The notes under the pieces are model-generated. The model was not told the origin of the DNA. It made no database searches and was given only the letters and a program-made list of their open reading frames with translations. DNA of 64,000 nt. Source: an uncultured Acidimicrobiales bacterium. Its GTDB lineage: Bacteria; Actinomycetota; Acidimicrobiia; Acidimicrobiales; UBA10347. The DNA lies in the NCBI GenBank assembly GCA_937991435.1, contig CALKPY010000023.1:1434-65433 (forward strand), written 5' to 3'. The position numbers and the translations under genes are program-made. Positions 1,754 through 64,000 of the stretch are shown in pieces (within the stretch, counting starts at the first letter, position 1; each line of letters opens with the position of its first letter).

Positions 1754-3928
1754 ATGCGGGATAGACAGCCAGAAGCGGGTCTCCTGCTCAAACCATGGGG
1801 CCACCGACCTGCCCTAGACGGGCTGCGCACCATCTCGGTGTATCTGGTCGTCGCATTTCATGCCGACGTCCTTGCCTTTGCTGGCGGCTTTATCGGCGTC
1901 GACTTGTTCTTCGTATTGTCGGGCTACCTCGTCACCATGGTGCTCTGGACCGACTATCAAGCCCACAACCGTCTGCGACTCGGCAGGTTCTATGCGCGGC
2001 GGGTGCGCCGTCTCGTTCCGGCAGCACTCGTCGCCATCGTTGGTGCCGCAATTCTCATGCTTCTTGTGTCGGGATTCATCGCCCGAGATGCACTCATTGA
2101 CGATGCCCGGGCGGCAGCGTTGTGGTTCTCCAACTGGCACTTCATCGCTGAGTCTGCCGACTACTTCGGGGCAACAACTGCCAAGAGCCCGTACCAACAC
2201 TTCTGGTCGTTGTCGATCGAAGAACAGTTCTATGTCGGGTTCCCGCTCTGTATCTGGGGCCTGGCATGGCTGGCACGTCGTGCAAAACGCGATTCCATCG
2301 TCCCGTTCGCATTGACAGCGCTTGGCGTGGTGTCGCTGATCTTGCAGTTCGCTCGGTCAGGCGATGTGTCAAGGGCCTATTACGGCACTGACACTCGCGC
2401 CTATCAATTGCTATTCGGCGCGGCGCTGGCGCTCGTATTCGACAAGCTCCGCACCGAGCGCCGCTCACTCCCCGTGGCGTTCCGCACCGCCGGGTCGGCC
2501 ATCGTCGCAACGGCGATGTCAGTTTTCGTGGTGGCGTCGACCGATCTTGTCGACATGAGCGTCAGCGTTCGAGGTGTCGTCGCGTGTGTCTGCGCCCTCG
2601 CCATGCTCGCGGGCCTCGAGTTCGACGTCGACGGCCCAATAGCCAAGGCGTTGTCGGTGCGCCCTATGACCTACCTCGGAAGCATCTCCTACGGCACGTA
2701 TCTTTGGCACTGGCCCATCATCGTCGCATATCGGGTGCTCTACCCCGAGACCAATCCGTGGATCATGCTCGCCATCGCAGCGATTGGGGCGACCGTGCTC
2801 GCAGCAGTGTCGAGCCTGGTGGTCGAGCTTCCGATCAGGAACGGCTGGCAGCAACTACCAAAGGTGCCGGTGATCGCAGCAGCGCTTGGTCTCAGTGTTG
2901 CCGTAGCGATCGTTGTTCCGTTGGCGCTGGGATCAACGAGCCGCCCTCCACTTCGCACCGCCGACGTCGCGGCACCGATACCAACGGCCTCGGCAACACC
3001 AGCTCCCGGTGCGCTGCCGACTCCAGGCGGCGTCTCAGAGGTTTCGACACCAAATCCAGACACTGCGAACCCTGAAACACCAACCGCAGTGCCGACAACT
3101 AGCACCCCAGATGTGCCGTTGCAGTCCCCAGATGCGCAGTTCCTGAAAGACGTCGCCGAAGATCTAAGTCCCAATGTCGATCCGTGTGCGATCAATAGAG
3201 CGCAAGAATGCATCTTGCACCAAGGCGACTCGGGCCTACATATCTTGTTGATCGGTGACAGCGAGGCTCAGGTGTTTGCGAATCCGTTCCTCGCCAAAGC
3301 ACGAGAATTCGGCCACACGCTGTCCATGCAAGCCTTCCCCGGATGCCCTTGGATGCAGAACGTATTCACCGACAAGGCGCAATGGCAGCGAGGCTGCCAG
3401 CGCACCCACAACGCGCTGTACGGAGGCCTACTCGAAAGGCTCGACCCCGACATCGTGGTTGCATTCAACCTTGGTCGACTCGACCCTGAGGTTGCGCCCA
3501 TCGAGCAGTTCATTGCCAGCGATGAGCGCTATGCCGGGCTCTCCACGACCGATCTTGTCGAAGCCAGCGTGCGCGACTCAGCCGAGTTCATCTTGCAGGT
3601 TGCAGACCGTCTGATCATCATGGAGCCTGCGCCTCTTCCGCCCACTGACCCCATCGAATGCATGACCGTTTTCGACGATGCTCGGCAATGCGGGTTCACG
3701 CATCACACGCCTCTACTTGACAGCGAAGTCATCTATCGGTCAATCGCTGCCGGCGACGATCGCATCGCCACGCTCGACGTCGACCTTGTGAGCTGTCCTG
3801 ATTACCCCGAATGCCCGGCATTGATCGACGAAACGCCGGTATATCGCGACCCGTGGCACGTGTGGCAGGGGTTCTACCTCGAAAACGTCGACGAGCTTTG
3901 GTCGATTATCGAACCGGCGCTGCAATAG
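1754..3928 (+). CDS. Acyltransferase-3 / SGNH fusion O-acyltransferase (OafA/OatA-like)
   Basis: RPALDGLR, GVDLFFVLSGY, RRVRRL, HFWSLSIEEQFY and SYGTYLWHWP, then a Pro/Thr-rich linker and a C-terminal GDS...DPWH SGNH domain. Confidence 0.9.
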   Translation: MRDRQPEAGLLLKPWGHRPALDGLRTISVYLVVAFHADVLAFAGGFIGVDLFFVLSGYLVTMVLWTDYQAHNRLRLGRFYARRVRRLVPAALVAIVGAAILMLLVSGFIARDALIDDARAAALWFSNWHFIAESADYFGATTAKSPYQHFWSLSIEEQFYVGFPLCIWGLAWLARRAKRDSIVPFALTALGVVSLILQFARSGDVSRAYYGTDTRAYQLLFGAALALVFDKLRTERRSLPVAFRTAGSAIVATAMSVFVVASTDLVDMSVSVRGVVACVCALAMLAGLEFDVDGPIAKALSVRPMTYLGSISYGTYLWHWPIIVAYRVLYPETNPWIMLAIAAIGATVLAAVSSLVVELPIRNGWQQLPKVPVIAAALGLSVAVAIVVPLALGSTSRPPLRTADVAAPIPTASATPAPGALPTPGGVSEVSTPNPDTANPETPTAVPTTSTPDVPLQSPDAQFLKDVAEDLSPNVDPCAINRAQECILHQGDSGLHILLIGDSEAQVFANPFLAKAREFGHTLSMQAFPGCPWMQNVFTDKAQWQRGCQRTHNALYGGLLERLDPDIVVAFNLGRLDPEVAPIEQFIASDERYAGLSTTDLVEASVRDSAEFILQVADRLIIMEPAPLPPTDPIECMTVFDDARQCGFTHHTPLLDSEVIYRSIAAGDDRIATLDVDLVSCPDYPECPALIDETPVYRDPWHVWQGFYLENVDELWSIIEPALQ

Positions 3929-3963
3929 CCTCAGACCTGCCCACCCGAGCAGAGGATCCTGCA

Positions 3964-5922
3964 GTGTCGAAGCGTTGGCCAGACATCACCCGCGGCGCCA
4001 GAGCGTTTGACTGGCTCACCGTTATCGCAGCCAGTGTCGTCGCGCTGTTCACATCACCAGTTCGCTCGGTCTATGACCCAACCTTGATCGAAGGGCTTGA
4101 CCCGTCATGGCGCATTGGCCTACACCAGGTATTTCTCGACGATCTCGTGTGGGGACAAGACGTCGTCAACACGCTTGGACCATTGGGGTTTGCCGCCTTT
4201 CCGATGCTGTCGCAAGGCCACACGGCCTGGATCTCAATCTTCACCTTCGGGCTGCTGCATTGGGCGGCTGCGTGGGTCTCGATACGCGTTCTGAAAGACC
4301 ACTTTGGCTGGGCCGTATCGATTCTCGGCACGTACGTGTTGATGGTGGTTGCGTGGGTCCCGATCTTTGAAGCCAGCCTGGCAGCCGAGGCGTTCGCTGC
4401 GCTGTTCGGTGTCATGTGCATGCGCCACCTGACTCGGGCCGCAGACGGTGTTCGCGCCCACGTCGACGACCGGTTTTTGGGGTTCACCCTTGGCGCGTTG
4501 GCCTCGCTCATGTTGTTGATCAAGTTGAGCACCGGCCTTCAAGGCATCGCTGTTGGCGGCGCGACCCTTGTCGCTCTGGCATGGCTTGACCGGTCCCGTG
4601 GCCGGGCACTGCACTTGCTGGGCGGATGGGCCGCCGGCGGCGGCCTGACCTATCTCGTCGGATGGGTGCTGCTTGGACAACCGCTGTCGGCGCTGCCCCG
4701 CTATCTGTCATCTGCGCTCGAAATGGCCGGTTCGTATGGCGAAGCAATGGGAGTCGAGCGCCCCGATCCGAGCTGGGCACGCAACGGGGCATTTGCACTG
4801 ATTGCCTTAGTGGCGATCGCGGCGTTTGTGCGATGGAATGAACGATCCAGGCTCGATCGCCTATTCATGGTTGCCCCGCTCGCCGGCTTCATTTTCTTCG
4901 GCTTCAAACTCGGATTCGTACGAGCCGACTGGCAACACATTGTGCCGTTCTTTTTGGGCATGGGACTCGTTGCGCTCCCTCTCCTGGGCCGTGACCGGCG
5001 GGTTGCCCTCGCTGCCGTCGCAGTTGTGGCATCGGTCGCGGTCGGGTGGGCATCTGACGAAGTCAACTTCTCGCTATCGACCGCTCTCGCACCCGGCGAC
5101 AACCTGGCACAGTCTTGGGAAAACACGGAACTGCTAATACGTCCAGGTCTGCGCGACCAGGCAGTCGATGAATACACCGAGACCGCTCGACAACGGGCTG
5201 GCTTCTCGGCCGAAACGCTCAACCTGCTGCGCGGTAAGCGGGTGCACATCGACCCGGTAGAAACCTCGCTGCTGTTTACGTACCGCGACGATTTCGAGTG
5301 GGGTGCCGTACCCGTATTCCAGTCATATCTGGCGTATACGCAGCACTTCGACGACATAAACGCCGAATGGCTCCGTAACGACGACAACGCCCCTGAAATC
5401 ATCTTGCGTAGTTCCTGGGCCATCGATCGACGCAGCCCCGCCTACGAAAGCCCCGAATACCTGATCGAGATGTATTGCAGATACCGACAAGTCGGCGAAC
5501 AGATCCACGGCAAGGGCAAGCGTGCGGTCACCTATGCGATCTTGCAACGAGCGCCGAGTCGATGTGGCGAGATCGAGGAGCTGTCTCGGACCGAGACCGC
5601 CGTAGGGTCACGCATCACGTTCCCGCCTAAACCATGCGACGGCCGATATGTGTGGGCGATCGAAGGCTTTGAGAGCCTCGGCCAGCAGATACGCACCGCT
5701 GCCTTCAAAGACGCCACGTATACGGTTCGACATGCACAAGGTCGCGGCTGGCGACTCGTGCCCGGAACCGCTGCCCAGTGGCATCTGTTTCCCGGCGGGC
5801 AGTTCCCGCCCTGGATCGCCCCCGCCACCGCACCGGGCTGGGTGCAAGTGCAATCAGATTCAACACGTCTGACCCCGAGCTCAATCGAAGTGATCTACGG
5901 CTGTCTACCCGTGCCATCGTGA
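3964..5922 (+). CDS. Polytopic membrane protein, probable GT-C fold glycosyltransferase
   Basis: GLDPSW...GQDVVNTLGPLG first-loop motif, about 11 hydrophobic segments and a soluble C-terminus. GTG 3964 follows GAGGA. It lies within a glycan operon. Confidence 0.6.
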   Translation: MSKRWPDITRGARAFDWLTVIAASVVALFTSPVRSVYDPTLIEGLDPSWRIGLHQVFLDDLVWGQDVVNTLGPLGFAAFPMLSQGHTAWISIFTFGLLHWAAAWVSIRVLKDHFGWAVSILGTYVLMVVAWVPIFEASLAAEAFAALFGVMCMRHLTRAADGVRAHVDDRFLGFTLGALASLMLLIKLSTGLQGIAVGGATLVALAWLDRSRGRALHLLGGWAAGGGLTYLVGWVLLGQPLSALPRYLSSALEMAGSYGEAMGVERPDPSWARNGAFALIALVAIAAFVRWNERSRLDRLFMVAPLAGFIFFGFKLGFVRADWQHIVPFFLGMGLVALPLLGRDRRVALAAVAVVASVAVGWASDEVNFSLSTALAPGDNLAQSWENTELLIRPGLRDQAVDEYTETARQRAGFSAETLNLLRGKRVHIDPVETSLLFTYRDDFEWGAVPVFQSYLAYTQHFDDINAEWLRNDDNAPEIILRSSWAIDRRSPAYESPEYLIEMYCRYRQVGEQIHGKGKRAVTYAILQRAPSRCGEIEELSRTETAVGSRITFPPKPCDGRYVWAIEGFESLGQQIRTAAFKDATYTVRHAQGRGWRLVPGTAAQWHLFPGGQFPPWIAPATAPGWVQVQSDSTRLTPSSIEVIYGCLPVPS

Positions 5923-59793: not shown

Positions 59794-61920
59794 CTAGGGC
59801 GCTGGGACCAGGAAGCCGGCCACCGGCGGTGACTGTCGGCGAGCGACGATCTCTCCCTGCGGGTAGCGCTGTACCAAGGCATCGATCTGATCGACATAGG
59901 GGCCAATGAGCAGGAACAATTGGGCTCGCGGCGTATCCCAAAGGTCGATGTTCATCGGGTCCGCGAAACCTTGATCGAGCGGTGCCCGATTCGCGCCTTG
60001 AAGTCCGGGCAAGCGGTACGTCAACGATGAGTAGTCAATGTAGTGACGCCCTGAGTACCAGTTGACGAACACCGCTTGGCGGTCAGTGTTCTGCTCAATG
60101 ATCTGCGAAGCCGACTCGAGCTCTTCAACAAATACCCACTTCTGAAATCCGTCATCTCGAAATGTCGTGAAATACGGAACGACGCTCGTGAGTAGCAGGC
60201 CGGCGACAACCCCGACGGTCAATACCGCCGCTGACGGGACGTGAAGCCCGCGCACGAGCGTGATTGCGGCGACTACACCGACACCCGCGAGAATGGCGAG
60301 GAATGGAGCCATCGCATAGGCACGGCGGACATAGCCATTCACGGTGATCGCCGGTGCGATCGGCATAACTGCAATCGTCGCGAGTGCGATGGCCATGAAC
60401 AAGGTGCGGTTTCGATACAGCACAACCAGCAGGCCAATAATGGCAAAAAACGCTACGACGAGCGGTACCTGTCGAATCACACCCGATGCATCACCACCGT
60501 CGGGGATTGGTGACCAGACCAGATACTTCCAGGCCTGTGCGTACCACGTTGCAACATCACCGATTCGTTCAAGCCACGATGCCTGCTCCCAGTCAGGCGT
60601 ATTCGTACGCCTGACCAACCTGAAGTGGCCCCCGTATCCCTTGGTTGGGTCAACCATGTAGCGAAACATCGGAACGAGCGTGAACCCGGCGGCGATCGGC
60701 CCCCATATGAGTGTGCTGATTCGACGATCGGTGTAGCGACCACCGATCACATACCACGAGGCGACAGCTACGAAAACTGCAGCCCCCCATACCCAATGCG
60801 AGTTGTACACATAGACGCCAAACGCCGCCGCAAACCCGCCGAGTGCCCAATCGCGCCGGCGACCCGACTGCCCAGCGCGATCGATCAGCGCCGCGGCTGC
60901 AAGTACGGTGAGCGGCCACCACGCCAGCGGGAAACCAATCCGCGAGAAATGCAGCGACCACGGCATGGCCGCCAGAACCACGGCCGCGGCTACGCCCACT
61001 TCATGGCCGAAGCGGCGCTGCGCAACGAGGTATATCAACGCAACGGTGAGCGTGCCGGCAACGGCTGATCCGATGCGAACTGCAAAGGCCGACGGACCAA
61101 AAAAGGCCTCAAACGGCGCTGTGAAGTACATGGGAGCCGTGGGCTGGCCAAGTGCTTCTGGCGTGTAGATACCGATCCAGCCATCGAGCACGATTCGACG
61201 TGCGTCGACTCCCATCAACGCTTCGTCACCATGGATTCCAACGGGCAGTTCTGAAAGGTCCCAGGTGCGAAGCACAAAGGCTACGAACACAACGAGCGCG
61301 GCCACGCCAACCTGGTTCCAGGTCAGTTCCCGACTCGCAAGCCAACGATCGGTGCGTTGTCGGAAACCGGTCCACATAGGTGGCGGCGAGCCGGACTGTT
61401 CGGTCGCTGCTAACGGGGAGTTCTCAACGGCGGCTGGGGCACCAGCTAGTTGTGAGAACGATCCCAAGGATTCGCCAACCAGGCCTACAAGGGTATGGAT
61501 ACCCGGTGCGTGCGGCGCTTCGATTCGAGAAACAACAAGCTTGCACGGCGAGCCCGATTCACGTTCAGTATCCAACTGAGCCAACAACGACAGAGAAAAC
61601 TCCGTGGTCTCACGGCTCGGCCTCGCCAACACGGCTCGCAACGGATCACGGTCGCCATCGGCGACGAGCTGGGTGAGATCAGACGCCGCTGCGATCGGCG
61701 CACCAGCAGCATCAACCCAGGACCCGCTCGAGAACACGACCCGACCGGACTCATCAAGCTCAACCAAGGCGTGGGTTGGCCCGATCAAACGGCGCGCCTG
61801 CGCTCGCAACGCGACCCGACGATCACCGTCGAGCTCGGACTCACTGGGCCTTTTCATGGTGCCTTGACTCGTGGAACGGTCGCGTGACGAGGTCGCCGGC
61901 TTTGGGTTCTCGAGGTCCAT
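59794..61920 (-). CDS. ArnT/PMT-like GT-C glycosyltransferase with an N-terminal PAS-like domain
   Basis: LRTWDL...GIHGDEA catalytic loop, FAVRIGSA, PWSLHFSR and about 11 TM segments. N-terminal LVELDESGRVVFSS / QLVADGDRDPL. Confidence 0.75.
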   Translation of the reverse strand: MDLENPKPATSSRDRSTSQGTMKRPSESELDGDRRVALRAQARRLIGPTHALVELDESGRVVFSSGSWVDAAGAPIAAASDLTQLVADGDRDPLRAVLARPSRETTEFSLSLLAQLDTERESGSPCKLVVSRIEAPHAPGIHTLVGLVGESLGSFSQLAGAPAAVENSPLAATEQSGSPPPMWTGFRQRTDRWLASRELTWNQVGVAALVVFVAFVLRTWDLSELPVGIHGDEALMGVDARRIVLDGWIGIYTPEALGQPTAPMYFTAPFEAFFGPSAFAVRIGSAVAGTLTVALIYLVAQRRFGHEVGVAAAVVLAAMPWSLHFSRIGFPLAWWPLTVLAAAALIDRAGQSGRRRDWALGGFAAAFGVYVYNSHWVWGAAVFVAVASWYVIGGRYTDRRISTLIWGPIAAGFTLVPMFRYMVDPTKGYGGHFRLVRRTNTPDWEQASWLERIGDVATWYAQAWKYLVWSPIPDGGDASGVIRQVPLVVAFFAIIGLLVVLYRNRTLFMAIALATIAVMPIAPAITVNGYVRRAYAMAPFLAILAGVGVVAAITLVRGLHVPSAAVLTVGVVAGLLLTSVVPYFTTFRDDGFQKWVFVEELESASQIIEQNTDRQAVFVNWYSGRHYIDYSSLTYRLPGLQGANRAPLDQGFADPMNIDLWDTPRAQLFLLIGPYVDQIDALVQRYPQGEIVARRQSPPVAGFLVPAP

Positions 61921-61995
61921 GTCGGGCAAAGAGTACCGCCCCACTCACCGTAGGTTCGGCAACCGCCTTGGTCGTTGACCTGTGTCAGCTTGAAC

Positions 61996-63102
61996 TCAGG
62001 CAGTCCAGGTTGGGTAGTAGTTCTCGGCCCCCATCTCGCGAACATCGGTGAGCCAGTCGCCGGCGTAGGGCCAAGCCGCCTCATCGCCAGCAGCAGGGCC
62101 CTGCCAGAAGCGAGCGAGTGGTCCGTCGAGCGATGGTTCAAGGGACCACGCTTGGCGGCGATACGCGAAATTCGACGGCACCAGTTCGTGCGCTGAACGG
62201 AAATGCCGAATCGCCGCATCGTGGTCGCCAGTGAGTTCCAGATGTGTGGCCATTTCGAAATGCGCGTGGCCGAGCGCCTCGGCAGAAGATCGGCTTCCGG
62301 AACGTTCGATGACTTCGTGTTCGGTGAGCGCAAACTCGCTGTCAGCACCGTTGGCCGCCCAGTCGCGCAACGCTGCTTCGTATCCCTGAGGGTTGGCCTG
62401 GATCTTCGAGGCTTCGCCCATGATGGCCATCATGCGTTCCGGAATCTCTGCCATGTCGCCGAGGTTCATGTTGCGCTCAAGCTCAATGGACGGCGGCGCG
62501 GGGGCAGGTTCAGCCGGGCGCACAATCTGTCCGTGTTCGTCAATCCAAACCCCATTGGGAATGTTCACGACGCCGAACAATTCGGCCATGCGATGGTGCG
62601 CATCGATCAATGACGGGTGCTCAGGTGCGGCCGATTCGATGAAGGGGCGGCACGCTTCGACACCAGCAGTGTCGAGACCAACCGTGACAATCTCGAGCCC
62701 CAGCGGAGCCATCTCATTGCGAAAGGCCTGCCACACGGGCAGGTCAGCTGAGCAACCTCAATACGGCGACCATGCAACCAGCAACACTTTGGTGCCGCGT
62801 AACGAATCGAGTTCAAACGTGTCGCCGTTGATATCCGGAAGCATGAGGTTCGCCGCCTGAGCGCTCGCGAGCGCACGAGCACCAATCGATTCGGGACCAA
62901 CGGCCCAAACACCGTGTTGGGGTTCGTGCACGAGCGGCAAGTGCATCTGCTCGGCGAGCTGTTCGAGGTTGACCACATCGCCGACCGGCGCGGGGTCGAG
63001 TGGCACGCACACCGCTCCTTTGCACGCGTCTTCAGGCTTGAGTTGCCAGCCGGTCCGACGCTCGAAGTCGGCTCGACTCACAGAAAGAGTGTTGGTGATC
63101 AT
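61996..63102 (-). CDS. Probable selenoprotein: ResA/TlpA-like redoxin with WSPY-U-GC motif and C-terminal TPR-like helices
   Basis: The track ORFs 62758..63237 and 61996..62736 are in the same frame, separated by a single TGA (62758-62760) at the thioredoxin-fold active-site position. A SECIS-like hairpin follows. Confidence 0.8.
62727..62760 (-). promoter_or_regulatory. Bacterial SECIS-like element
   Basis: mRNA UGA-14 nt-CCUGCC-[CGUGU]-GGCAGG: a perfect 6-bp stem with GU in the apical loop. Confidence 0.65.
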
Positions 63103-63149
63103 TGCTCCACCGTAGGGCCCCATGCACAAAGCCGGGAATCGAGGGCCAG

Positions 63150-64000
63150 TTACCGCACTGACGCAGCATCGGTGTTTGCGCCACACACGATCACGGCCAC
63201 GCGCTCGTCGGCCGAAAGAGTCACCGCTCCGCCCCAAATAGCCGCTGCGGCTGCCGCCCCGCCCGGTTCGACGACGAGCTTTAAATCATTCCAGAAGCGG
63301 CGTTGAGCGTAGAGGATCGCATCATCGCTCACCGTCACCGGCTCGACCCCTGCCGCCTTCAGAACCTGCCAGTTCGTGAGCCCGATACGTGGTGCGCCAA
63401 GCGAATCTGCAGCTCGCCCACCAACCTCGACATCGACAGGTTCGCCCGCCGCATGAGCCGCTGCGAAACAGCGACTGCGCTCGGGTTCGACCGTGATCAC
63501 CTTGGTGTTCAACGTCGCAAACCATGCAGCGACGCCAGCCGCCAGGCCGCCACCACCCAACGCGACGAGCACCGTGTCGATTTCGCCGAGTTGCTGGTGC
63601 ATCTCACGGGCGATTGTTCCCGCTCCCGCGATCGTGTCGAGGTGGTCATACGCGTGAATGTCCAGGGCACCGGTTTCTGTTTGACGTTGACGGCACGCCA
63701 GTAACGCATCGGCATACAGCGCTCCTGTGACGTGCACCGTTGCACCGAGTTCTCGTAGGGCGTCGACCTTTGTCGCCGGTGACACTTCGGGGACAAATAT
63801 CTCGGCGGCGACGTTGAGACGTCTCGCCGCCCATGCCACGGCCAGGCCATGATTTCCGCCGCTCGCTGCGATGAGCCCGGGCTCCGGGATCTGTTCCACA
63901 AGCGCTCTGTTCAGGGCGCCGCGAGGTTTGAACGACCCGGTGTGCTGCAACAACTCAAGCTTGCAGCTGATGCTGGCAGCACGACCGAAGAAGTCGTGAC
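63150..64000 (-). CDS. PLP-dependent serine/threonine dehydratase family protein, 5' end beyond the window edge
   Basis: KLELLQHTGSFKPRG, ASGGNHG, LGGGGL, VEPGGA and CGAN. The frame stays open to position 64000. Confidence 0.9.
   Translation of the reverse strand, partial: HDFFGRAASISCKLELLQHTGSFKPRGALNRALVEQIPEPGLIAASGGNHGLAVAWAARRLNVAAEIFVPEVSPATKVDALRELGATVHVTGALYADALLACRQRQTETGALDIHAYDHLDTIAGAGTIAREMHQQLGEIDTVLVALGGGGLAAGVAAWFATLNTKVITVEPERSRCFAAAHAAGEPVDVEVGGRAADSLGAPRIGLTNWQVLKAAGVEPVTVSDDAILYAQRRFWNDLKLVVEPGGAAAAAAIWGGAVTLSADERVAVIVCGANTDAASVR

Follow-up and report, generated by a model that had tools for sequence, protein, structure and literature searches.

A predicted WAxxUGC-family selenoprotein gene, with an in-frame UGA and a SECIS-like hairpin, in an uncultured Acidimicrobiales bacterium

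Selenoproteins that carry selenocysteine (Sec, U) at the head of a U-G-C motif are a described group. In the available excerpt from the Global Ocean Sampling (GOS) survey, a 'Prx-like (UGC-containing)' family (Prx, peroxiredoxin) is listed under pfam00578 with UGC as its motif, and with 46 sequences that have Sec and 855 homologues that have Cys (PMC2398784), and the available part of a Sargasso Sea survey contains one UXC Prx-like sequence (PMC1088965). NCBIfam holds an equivalog model, NF041054 (WAxxUGC_long, 'ResA-like WAxxUGC motif-containing protein'), while ResA, TlpA, CcmG and DsbE (PDB 2f9s, 1st9, 1jfu, 3gl3) share a thioredoxin-like fold with a C-x-x-C motif at a strand-to-helix junction. 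Here we describe a gene of the NF041054 family on a 64,000-nucleotide (nt) stretch of DNA from an uncultured Acidimicrobiales bacterium (assembly GCA_937991435.1, contig CALKPY010000023.1, positions 1,434 to 65,433), which as a whole we call the window. The reading frame is interrupted by a UGA at codon 115, which an earlier note made from the sequence alone had proposed to encode Sec.

Reading this TGA as U gives 368 residues in one frame, from 63102 to 61996 on the minus strand, and apart from TGA-115 the 368 codons contain neither a stop nor a frameshift. The initiator Met1 is invariant among 44 aligned N-termini. Under translation table 11 the frame is split into an open reading frame (ORF) of 159 amino acids (aa) at 62758..63237 and another of 246 aa at 61996..62736, the latter starting with GTG at 62736. 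The earlier note had joined these two ORFs into one 368-aa frame with UGA at codon 115 and had foreseen that gene callers would split the gene; retranslation returns the same frame and the same split. Consistent with this, the public protein collection holds, for this DNA, only a 238-aa C-terminal piece (P0002). Residues 1-367 match positions 1-353 of the 354-position NF041054 model with 485.1 bits, where the cut-off is 300 (E 1.3e-145), and a six-frame search of the genome with the same model gives 478.4 bits. The gene is a member of an NCBI-curated selenoprotein family, real but not new. On the sequence evidence set out below, we put at about 0.9 the probability that this is a genuine, intact selenoprotein gene in which UGA-115 is decoded as Sec.

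The protein shares with NF041054 the U-G-C motif encoded as TGA-GGN-TGY, the three-part architecture and the length. In the context ...VLLVAWSPY-U-GCSADLPVWQ..., the motif is W111-S112-P113-Y114-U115-G116-C117, and its W, U (or C), G and C do not vary across 38 aligned sequences. The second motif residue is Ser here (WSPYUGC) and not the Ala of the model's name, a difference that implies none in function: residue 112 is Ala in at least 90% of the 38 sequences and Ser in this protein and in same-genus relatives (L049, L055), and the residues preceding U-G-C in relatives are WASW, WAPY, WATW, WAAW or WSPY. The earlier note had named the right family, but it presented both WSPYUGC and the UxC spacing as departures from the norm; relatives vary in the former, and the one-residue U-G-C spacing is the hallmark of the family. 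It had also overrated the novelty of the gene, given an existing equivalog model and UGC-type Prx/TlpA-like selenoproteins in print.

With the GOS family, as far as the excerpt describes it, the protein shares the UGC motif with Sec first, the PF00578 assignment and the existence of many Cys homologues; that family is given there as commoner in non-marine samples (PMC2398784), and the metagenome orthologues found here are mostly JGI-style records. The GOS family is likened to NF041054 by description, and may correspond to the long three-domain form, to the shorter paralogue or to both. A UGC-containing Prx-like/TlpA-like selenoprotein family has been published since 2008 and may be the same as NF041054. 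The string 'WAxxUGC' was absent from the papers of the literature collection searched.

The TGA is retained throughout the relatives of this gene. Among 201 genomes sampled from the order, 53 contain a match over the cut-off, and all 62 such matches carry exactly one in-frame TGA, with an additional TAG in a single one of them. A sample of 401 genomes from the phylum yielded 19 genomes with an over-cut-off match, and again each of the 19 matches has one TGA. At the loci fetched from genomes the TGA lies in the identical column, W-x-x-x-stop-G-C, in 30 of 30 cases. With a Cys-form query, 80 metagenome loci were fetched, of which 79 cover the site; the column holds TGA in 73 of these orthologues and TGC in six. 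One unpublished genome (G065, locus L042) is included in the order-level counts, the fetched loci and the hairpin consensus described below, and G280 enters the phylum sample as one below-cut-off row; neither affects the conclusions. Of the best 120 database matches, 107 are C-terminal pieces of 227-277 aa that follow the TGA, that of the window among them, the kind of product left by a gene caller that ends a gene at this codon. The other 13 are full length, with C at the column in 12 and a gap in one (P0016). Database homologues, genome loci and metagenome loci thus present Cys or TGA at this column, as the earlier note had expected if the proposal was right. It had likewise named reads with TGC, TGT or TGG as a point on which the proposal could fail; contigs from one public run (Logan contigs from one study, which cannot show rare variants) span the whole stretch, and none differs from it at the TGA, 62758-62760.

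A bacterial selenocysteine insertion sequence (bSECIS)-like hairpin, CCUGCC-CGUGU-GGCAGG, begins 14 nt after the UGA, just where the earlier note had placed a stem-loop, and its loop begins 20 nt after the UGA. Folded alone, the hairpin has an energy of -9.3 kcal/mol (z-score -3.1; 2 of 200 shuffles fold as well), and it is the minimum-energy structure in 40- and 50-nt contexts. In the 64-kb window the palindromic hairpin pattern is found a single time, where 100 shuffles give an expectation of 0.00, and the 3.7-Mb assembly has two copies of the longer pattern that includes the UGA, this one and one in a paralogue. The limits of the bacterial SECIS model, as stated in the available excerpt of its description, are a loop of 3-9 nt, a stem of 4-16 base pairs (bp), a G in loop positions 1-2, a distance of 16-37 nt from the UGA and a minimum free energy of at most -7.5 kcal/mol (PMC13188914). 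With its 5-nt loop, 6-bp stem, 20-nt spacing and the energy given above, the hairpin lies within all of them, and it agrees with the bSECISearch consensus in that excerpt, including G then U at loop positions 2-3 (PMC13188914). A search of Rfam over 62500-62900 returned no match at E <= 10, which is uninformative, since Rfam lacks a model for this bacterial SECIS.

The hairpin is conserved as a structure. We aligned 104 Sec-form sequences, namely that of the window, those of 29 loci from genomes and 73 from metagenomes, and that of the paralogue in this genome. Pairing holds in 98.9% of 612 cells, three of the six pairs show compensatory two-sided changes (C-G to U-A twice, G-C to C-G once), and the covariation score was reached by none of 500 column shuffles. 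Slid registers pair far worse, at 26-70%. RNAalifold predicts the 6-bp helix as the sole consensus structure, with neither a lower stem nor a bulged U conserved. The E. coli fdhF SECIS has both of these features, and in this respect the conserved stem here, just 6 bp long, differs from it. Synonymous sites within the hairpin are nearly fixed: the CTN codon of Leu121 ends in G in 101 of 102 rows and the CCN codon of Pro122 in C in 97 of 102, and at position 123 G is found in 98 of 102. In the same rows the flanking GGN codon of Gly116 is variable (C in 55, G in 24, A in 12, T in 11). All 102 distinct rows have G as the second nucleotide of the loop. Conservation, compensatory changes and agreement with the model limits together bear out the SECIS fit that the earlier note had proposed checking.

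Comparison with Cys forms adds to this picture. The Sec paralogue of this genome retains all six hairpin pairs, and three Cys paralogues in other genomes have 3, 2 and 3 of 6 left (counted by hand). Among six Cys orthologues, three are down to 5, 4 and 3 of 6 pairs, with the peptides DLSLWQ, DLILWQ and DLRLWQ (loci L063, L085 and L109). The comparison suggests that in Sec forms an RNA signal may constrain the otherwise invariant peptide DLP[V/G]WQ.

The genome appears equipped to use such a signal. The assembly (94.4% complete, 164 contigs) contains selA (396.7 bits), selB (254.8 bits) and selD (372.1 bits), each over its cut-off in profile searches of the genome; selA and selB adjoin on the same strand, 48 bases apart (contig C163, 18663-20944). 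The gene for tRNA-Sec (selC) reaches 66.3 bits, where the gathering score is 47, and ARAGORN calls it tRNA-SeC with anticodon tca. The four genes whose presence had been put forward as a check on the proposal are thus all found. The selD gene itself has one in-frame TGA, ...FSHGAG-U-GAKM... (contig C47; L010:1531-1533), so selenophosphate synthetase would itself be a selenoprotein here. The earlier note had also remarked that Sec use is uncommon among actinomycetes, which does not hold for this lineage, since 53 of the 201 order genomes carry the family with its TGA.

Several observations weigh against Sec decoding or loosen the support just described. Two of the 12 'Cys' database homologues are NCBI records that possibly carry U, since U may be printed as C. 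The run contigs probably derive from the source sample of the assembly, so they are not independent of it and lend weak support. In G+C-rich DNA the wider contexts of the hairpin do not fold unusually well: the z-score is -0.91 for 40 nt, -0.24 for 50 nt and -0.45 for 76 nt, and at 76 nt the fold of lowest energy pairs differently from the hairpin. Seven of the 612 alignment cells are unpaired, for example with CCCGCC in L110, L134 and L137. The hairpin overlaps the conserved peptide DLP[V/G]WQ, so that its conservation is partly protein constraint, and three of the six Cys orthologues still hold all six pairs.

These points leave room for three other accounts of the TGA. It could be a true stop, either in a pseudogene or because a Cys codon was misread in sequencing or assembly, in which case there would be no full-length protein. 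The split of the frame under table 11 and the lone C-terminal piece in the public protein collection fit this account, as does one metagenome orthologue (L070, about 625-645) that reads LVA-stop-SPY-stop-GC, with a second TGA replacing the invariant Trp111 codon; it indicates that broken copies may exist, although this second TGA may equally stem from a misread base, from decay of the copy or from some other cause. A true stop is, however, hard to reconcile with a TGA retained in all over-cut-off matches of 53 genomes and in most metagenome loci, with 368 codons free of any further stop or frameshift, with the full Sec machinery of the genome and with run contigs that show no other letter at the site, and we regard it as a remote prospect.

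The interruption could also be real and productive, giving a 114-residue N-terminal protein and a 246-residue protein from the GTG at 62736, with read-through occasional at most. This GTG lies 7 codons past the TGA, and the gene-caller products among the best database matches are of the C-terminal kind; since Sec is in general decoded with low efficiency, a certain amount of terminated product is to be expected. Nevertheless, the TGA lies within the thioredoxin-fold domain (Pfam, residues 81-193), of which neither half would be a complete fold, the Cys forms are single uninterrupted genes, and the conserved hairpin would be left without a role, which together make two products as the normal outcome highly improbable. 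That UGA is reassigned or suppressed to Trp, Gly or Cys is scarcely credible: TGA does stand for Trp or Gly in some bacterial lineages (NCBI tables 4 and 25), but this gene itself terminates on TGA, selA and selB are without in-frame stops in the genome family searches, homologues show Cys and not Trp or Gly at the column, a dedicated tRNA-Sec and SelB exist, and TGA occurs at exactly one site per gene.

We therefore return to UGA-115 as a Sec codon. Under this reading, the hairpin would act as a bacterial SECIS and recruit SelB with Sec-tRNA(Sec), supplied by the products of the genome's selA, selD and selC. The final TGA of the gene has no such hairpin, and translation would end there. Coordinates of the gene, of the hairpin and of the protein domains discussed below are collected in Table 1.

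Table 1. Features of the predicted selenoprotein gene, in window coordinates
Feature	Position	Strand	Detail or basis
Predicted selenoprotein coding sequence, complete	61996..63102	minus	368 codons plus terminal TGA 61996-61998; ATG start 63100-63102
UGA codon 115, first residue of the U-G-C redox motif	62758..62760	minus	Read here as selenocysteine (predicted)
bSECIS-like hairpin CCUGCC-CGUGU-GGCAGG	62727..62743	minus	5' arm 62738-62743; loop CGUGU 62733-62737; 3' arm 62727-62732
N-terminal alpha/beta domain, residues 1 to about 73	62884..63102	minus	AF2 models; residues 2-68 modelled folded
Cys27 and Cys32, on a beta-hairpin of the N-terminal domain	63022-63024 and 63007-63009	minus	AF2, alignments
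ResA/TlpA-like thioredoxin-fold domain, residues about 77-200, TGA inside	62503..62874	minus	Pfam, Foldseek, VIA
C-terminal helical domain, residues about 204-368	61999..62493	minus	AF2 helices
TPR-like unit, residues 280-317	62152-62265	minus	Family profile positions 276-311 match consensus TPR proteins

The AlphaFold2 (AF2) model of the full-length protein, built from a 38-sequence alignment, has a mean predicted local distance difference test score (pLDDT) of 93.4 and a predicted template modelling score (pTM) of 0.91, and shows three parts. In the N-terminal domain, the two cysteines of the CxxxxC segment ACKGAVCVP, to which the earlier note had drawn attention, are invariant in the 38 and in the 44 aligned relatives. 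This domain alone gave no match to Pfam at E <= 10, and against the PDB its best Foldseek E was 0.94 and its best VIA Z-score 3.3, with a root-mean-square deviation (rmsd) of 3.8 over 65 aligned residues (FliD D2-D3), which is neither convincing nor proof of a new fold. The middle domain, which contains the TGA, is matched by Pfam AhpC-TSA over residues 81-193 with 36.7 bits against a cut-off of 26, and by Redoxin with 28.8 bits. Foldseek aligns the model to ResA (2f9s_A) with E 1.3e-10, TMt 0.76 and rmsd 1.9 over 117 columns; VIA gives a Z-score of 14.0 to 3gl3_A and of 13.2 to 2f9s_A, the latter with rmsd 2.6 over 136 aligned residues. U115 sits between strand 105-111 and helix 117-134 of the model, the usual CxxC site. 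The C-terminal domain had been called similar to the tetratricopeptide repeat (TPR), a description that stands for the one unit recognised by the family profile and falls short for Pfam, whose TPR matches stay below threshold (TPR_14, 19.9 bits against 23.5). Hydropathy predicts neither a membrane anchor nor a signal-like hydrophobic segment: Kyte-Doolittle means over 19 residues reach at most 1.09 in the whole protein and 0.98 among the first 40 windows. Lacking an anchoring hydrophobic stretch, the protein is probably soluble and cytoplasmic, unlike ResA or TlpA.

The relation to the ResA/TlpA/CcmG/DsbE group is accordingly one of fold and of motif position, the motif lying at the same strand-to-helix junction. 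In contrast to the C-x-x-C of ResA, TlpA and CcmG, the motif here is U-G-C with one spacer in 38 of 38 aligned sequences, and the N-terminal CxxxxC domain and the C-terminal TPR-like domain are additional to ResA and TlpA. The protein scores below the curated cut-offs for ResA (NF002854, 54.1 against 170), TlpA (NF047696, 24.7 against 230) and DsbE (TIGR00385, 18.1 against 123), and far below that of the StoA model too. We also considered and rejected a peroxiredoxin (PF00578). The peroxidatic motif, which we take to be P-x-x-x-[T/S]-x-x-C, is absent, with Leu108 at -7 and, at -3, Ser here and Ala in at least 90% of the 38 relatives. The Pfam AhpC-TSA match marks the fold class only.

Some further observations concern the gene, its paralogue and its surroundings. 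No part of the gene is as conserved in nucleotide sequence as the stretch of motif and hairpin. From the same runs, short contigs belonging to other organisms align, at 90% identity or more, to 62692-62779 and nowhere else in the window, and the summed contig depth there rises from about 25 to 68-88; the limitation of the short-contig alignment to 62713-62772 fits the extreme nucleotide conservation of motif and hairpin. In a contig of run X1 the only differences from the window are G>A at 63022 (synonymous, in the Cys27 codon) and T>C at 63029, which changes Asp25 to Gly. Residue 25 is Gly in at least 90% of relatives, and the X1 differences probably reflect a co-occurring strain.

The same genome encodes a second UGC selenoprotein of 338 aa with the motif FSSW-U-GC (contig C114, about 3309-4322; L021:1135-2148, minus strand). 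It has the same N-terminal CxxxxC-type segment (LCRDEVCV) and a hairpin, UCUGCC-AGGUU-GGCAGG, 14 nt after its TGA. On NF041054 this paralogue scores 201.6 bits, below the cut-off, and so seems to belong to a sister family without a curated model of its own. Cys versions of it occur in genomes G546, G178 and G138.

In the window the gene lies between a Ser/Thr dehydratase gene (63150-63998) and a PMT_2 glycosyltransferase gene (59794-61944). The latter, downstream on the minus strand, encodes a membrane protein of 716 aa, in which residues 268-401 form a PMT_2 (GT-C glycosyltransferase) domain, with an N-terminal extension of about 200 residues without a family match; NCBIfam models do not match this protein. 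Neither neighbour was found within the 1.5-kb flanks of any of 29 related loci, and no cytochrome-c maturation genes were seen beside the selenoprotein gene in the window neighbourhood. The gene neighbourhood offers no functional lead.

As to function, the fold and motif point to a thiol/selenol-disulfide oxidoreductase. Sec115, placed where the attacking Cys of a CxxC centre sits, would attack a substrate disulfide or oxidised thiol, and Cys117, separated from it by a single Gly, would then release the adduct by forming a selenenylsulfide within the protein. Work on CGC peptides suggests that a CxC-type centre would be a stronger oxidant than CxxC. More speculatively, the CxxxxC N-terminal domain might serve as a second redox centre and the TPR-like domain as a partner-docking surface. 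Put together, these suggestions would describe a soluble three-domain selenoenzyme in which the CxxxxC pair, in a domain of no recognisable fold, makes up an internal redox relay with a strained U-G-C selenenylsulfide, the TPR unit selects the client, and the SECIS holds the peptide at DLP[V/G]WQ, a constraint that is eased, to DLILWQ, DLRLWQ or DLSLWQ, when Cys takes the place of Sec. As a whole we hold this scheme to be tentative, and unlikely to be right in all its parts. The literature searched contained no experimental study of such a relay, of client selection or of the peptide constraint.

Reviews list the family and a curated model exists for it, and the gene by itself raises no new question. 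What it illustrates is how such proteins are stored: this gene and most of its relatives, 107 of the best 120 matches, are public as truncated C-terminal pieces, whereas with Sec at TGA-115 the protein becomes whole again and is modelled with a confident fold. If the proposed relay and peptide constraint were true, the family would be more than a Sec version of ResA and would offer a visible case of an RNA signal constraining a protein sequence. For the organism, a marine genome of Acidimicrobiia type, the gene would be a further selenoprotein beside a SelD that contains Sec and a second UGC paralogue, and this lineage, against the textbook view of actinobacteria, uses selenium heavily.

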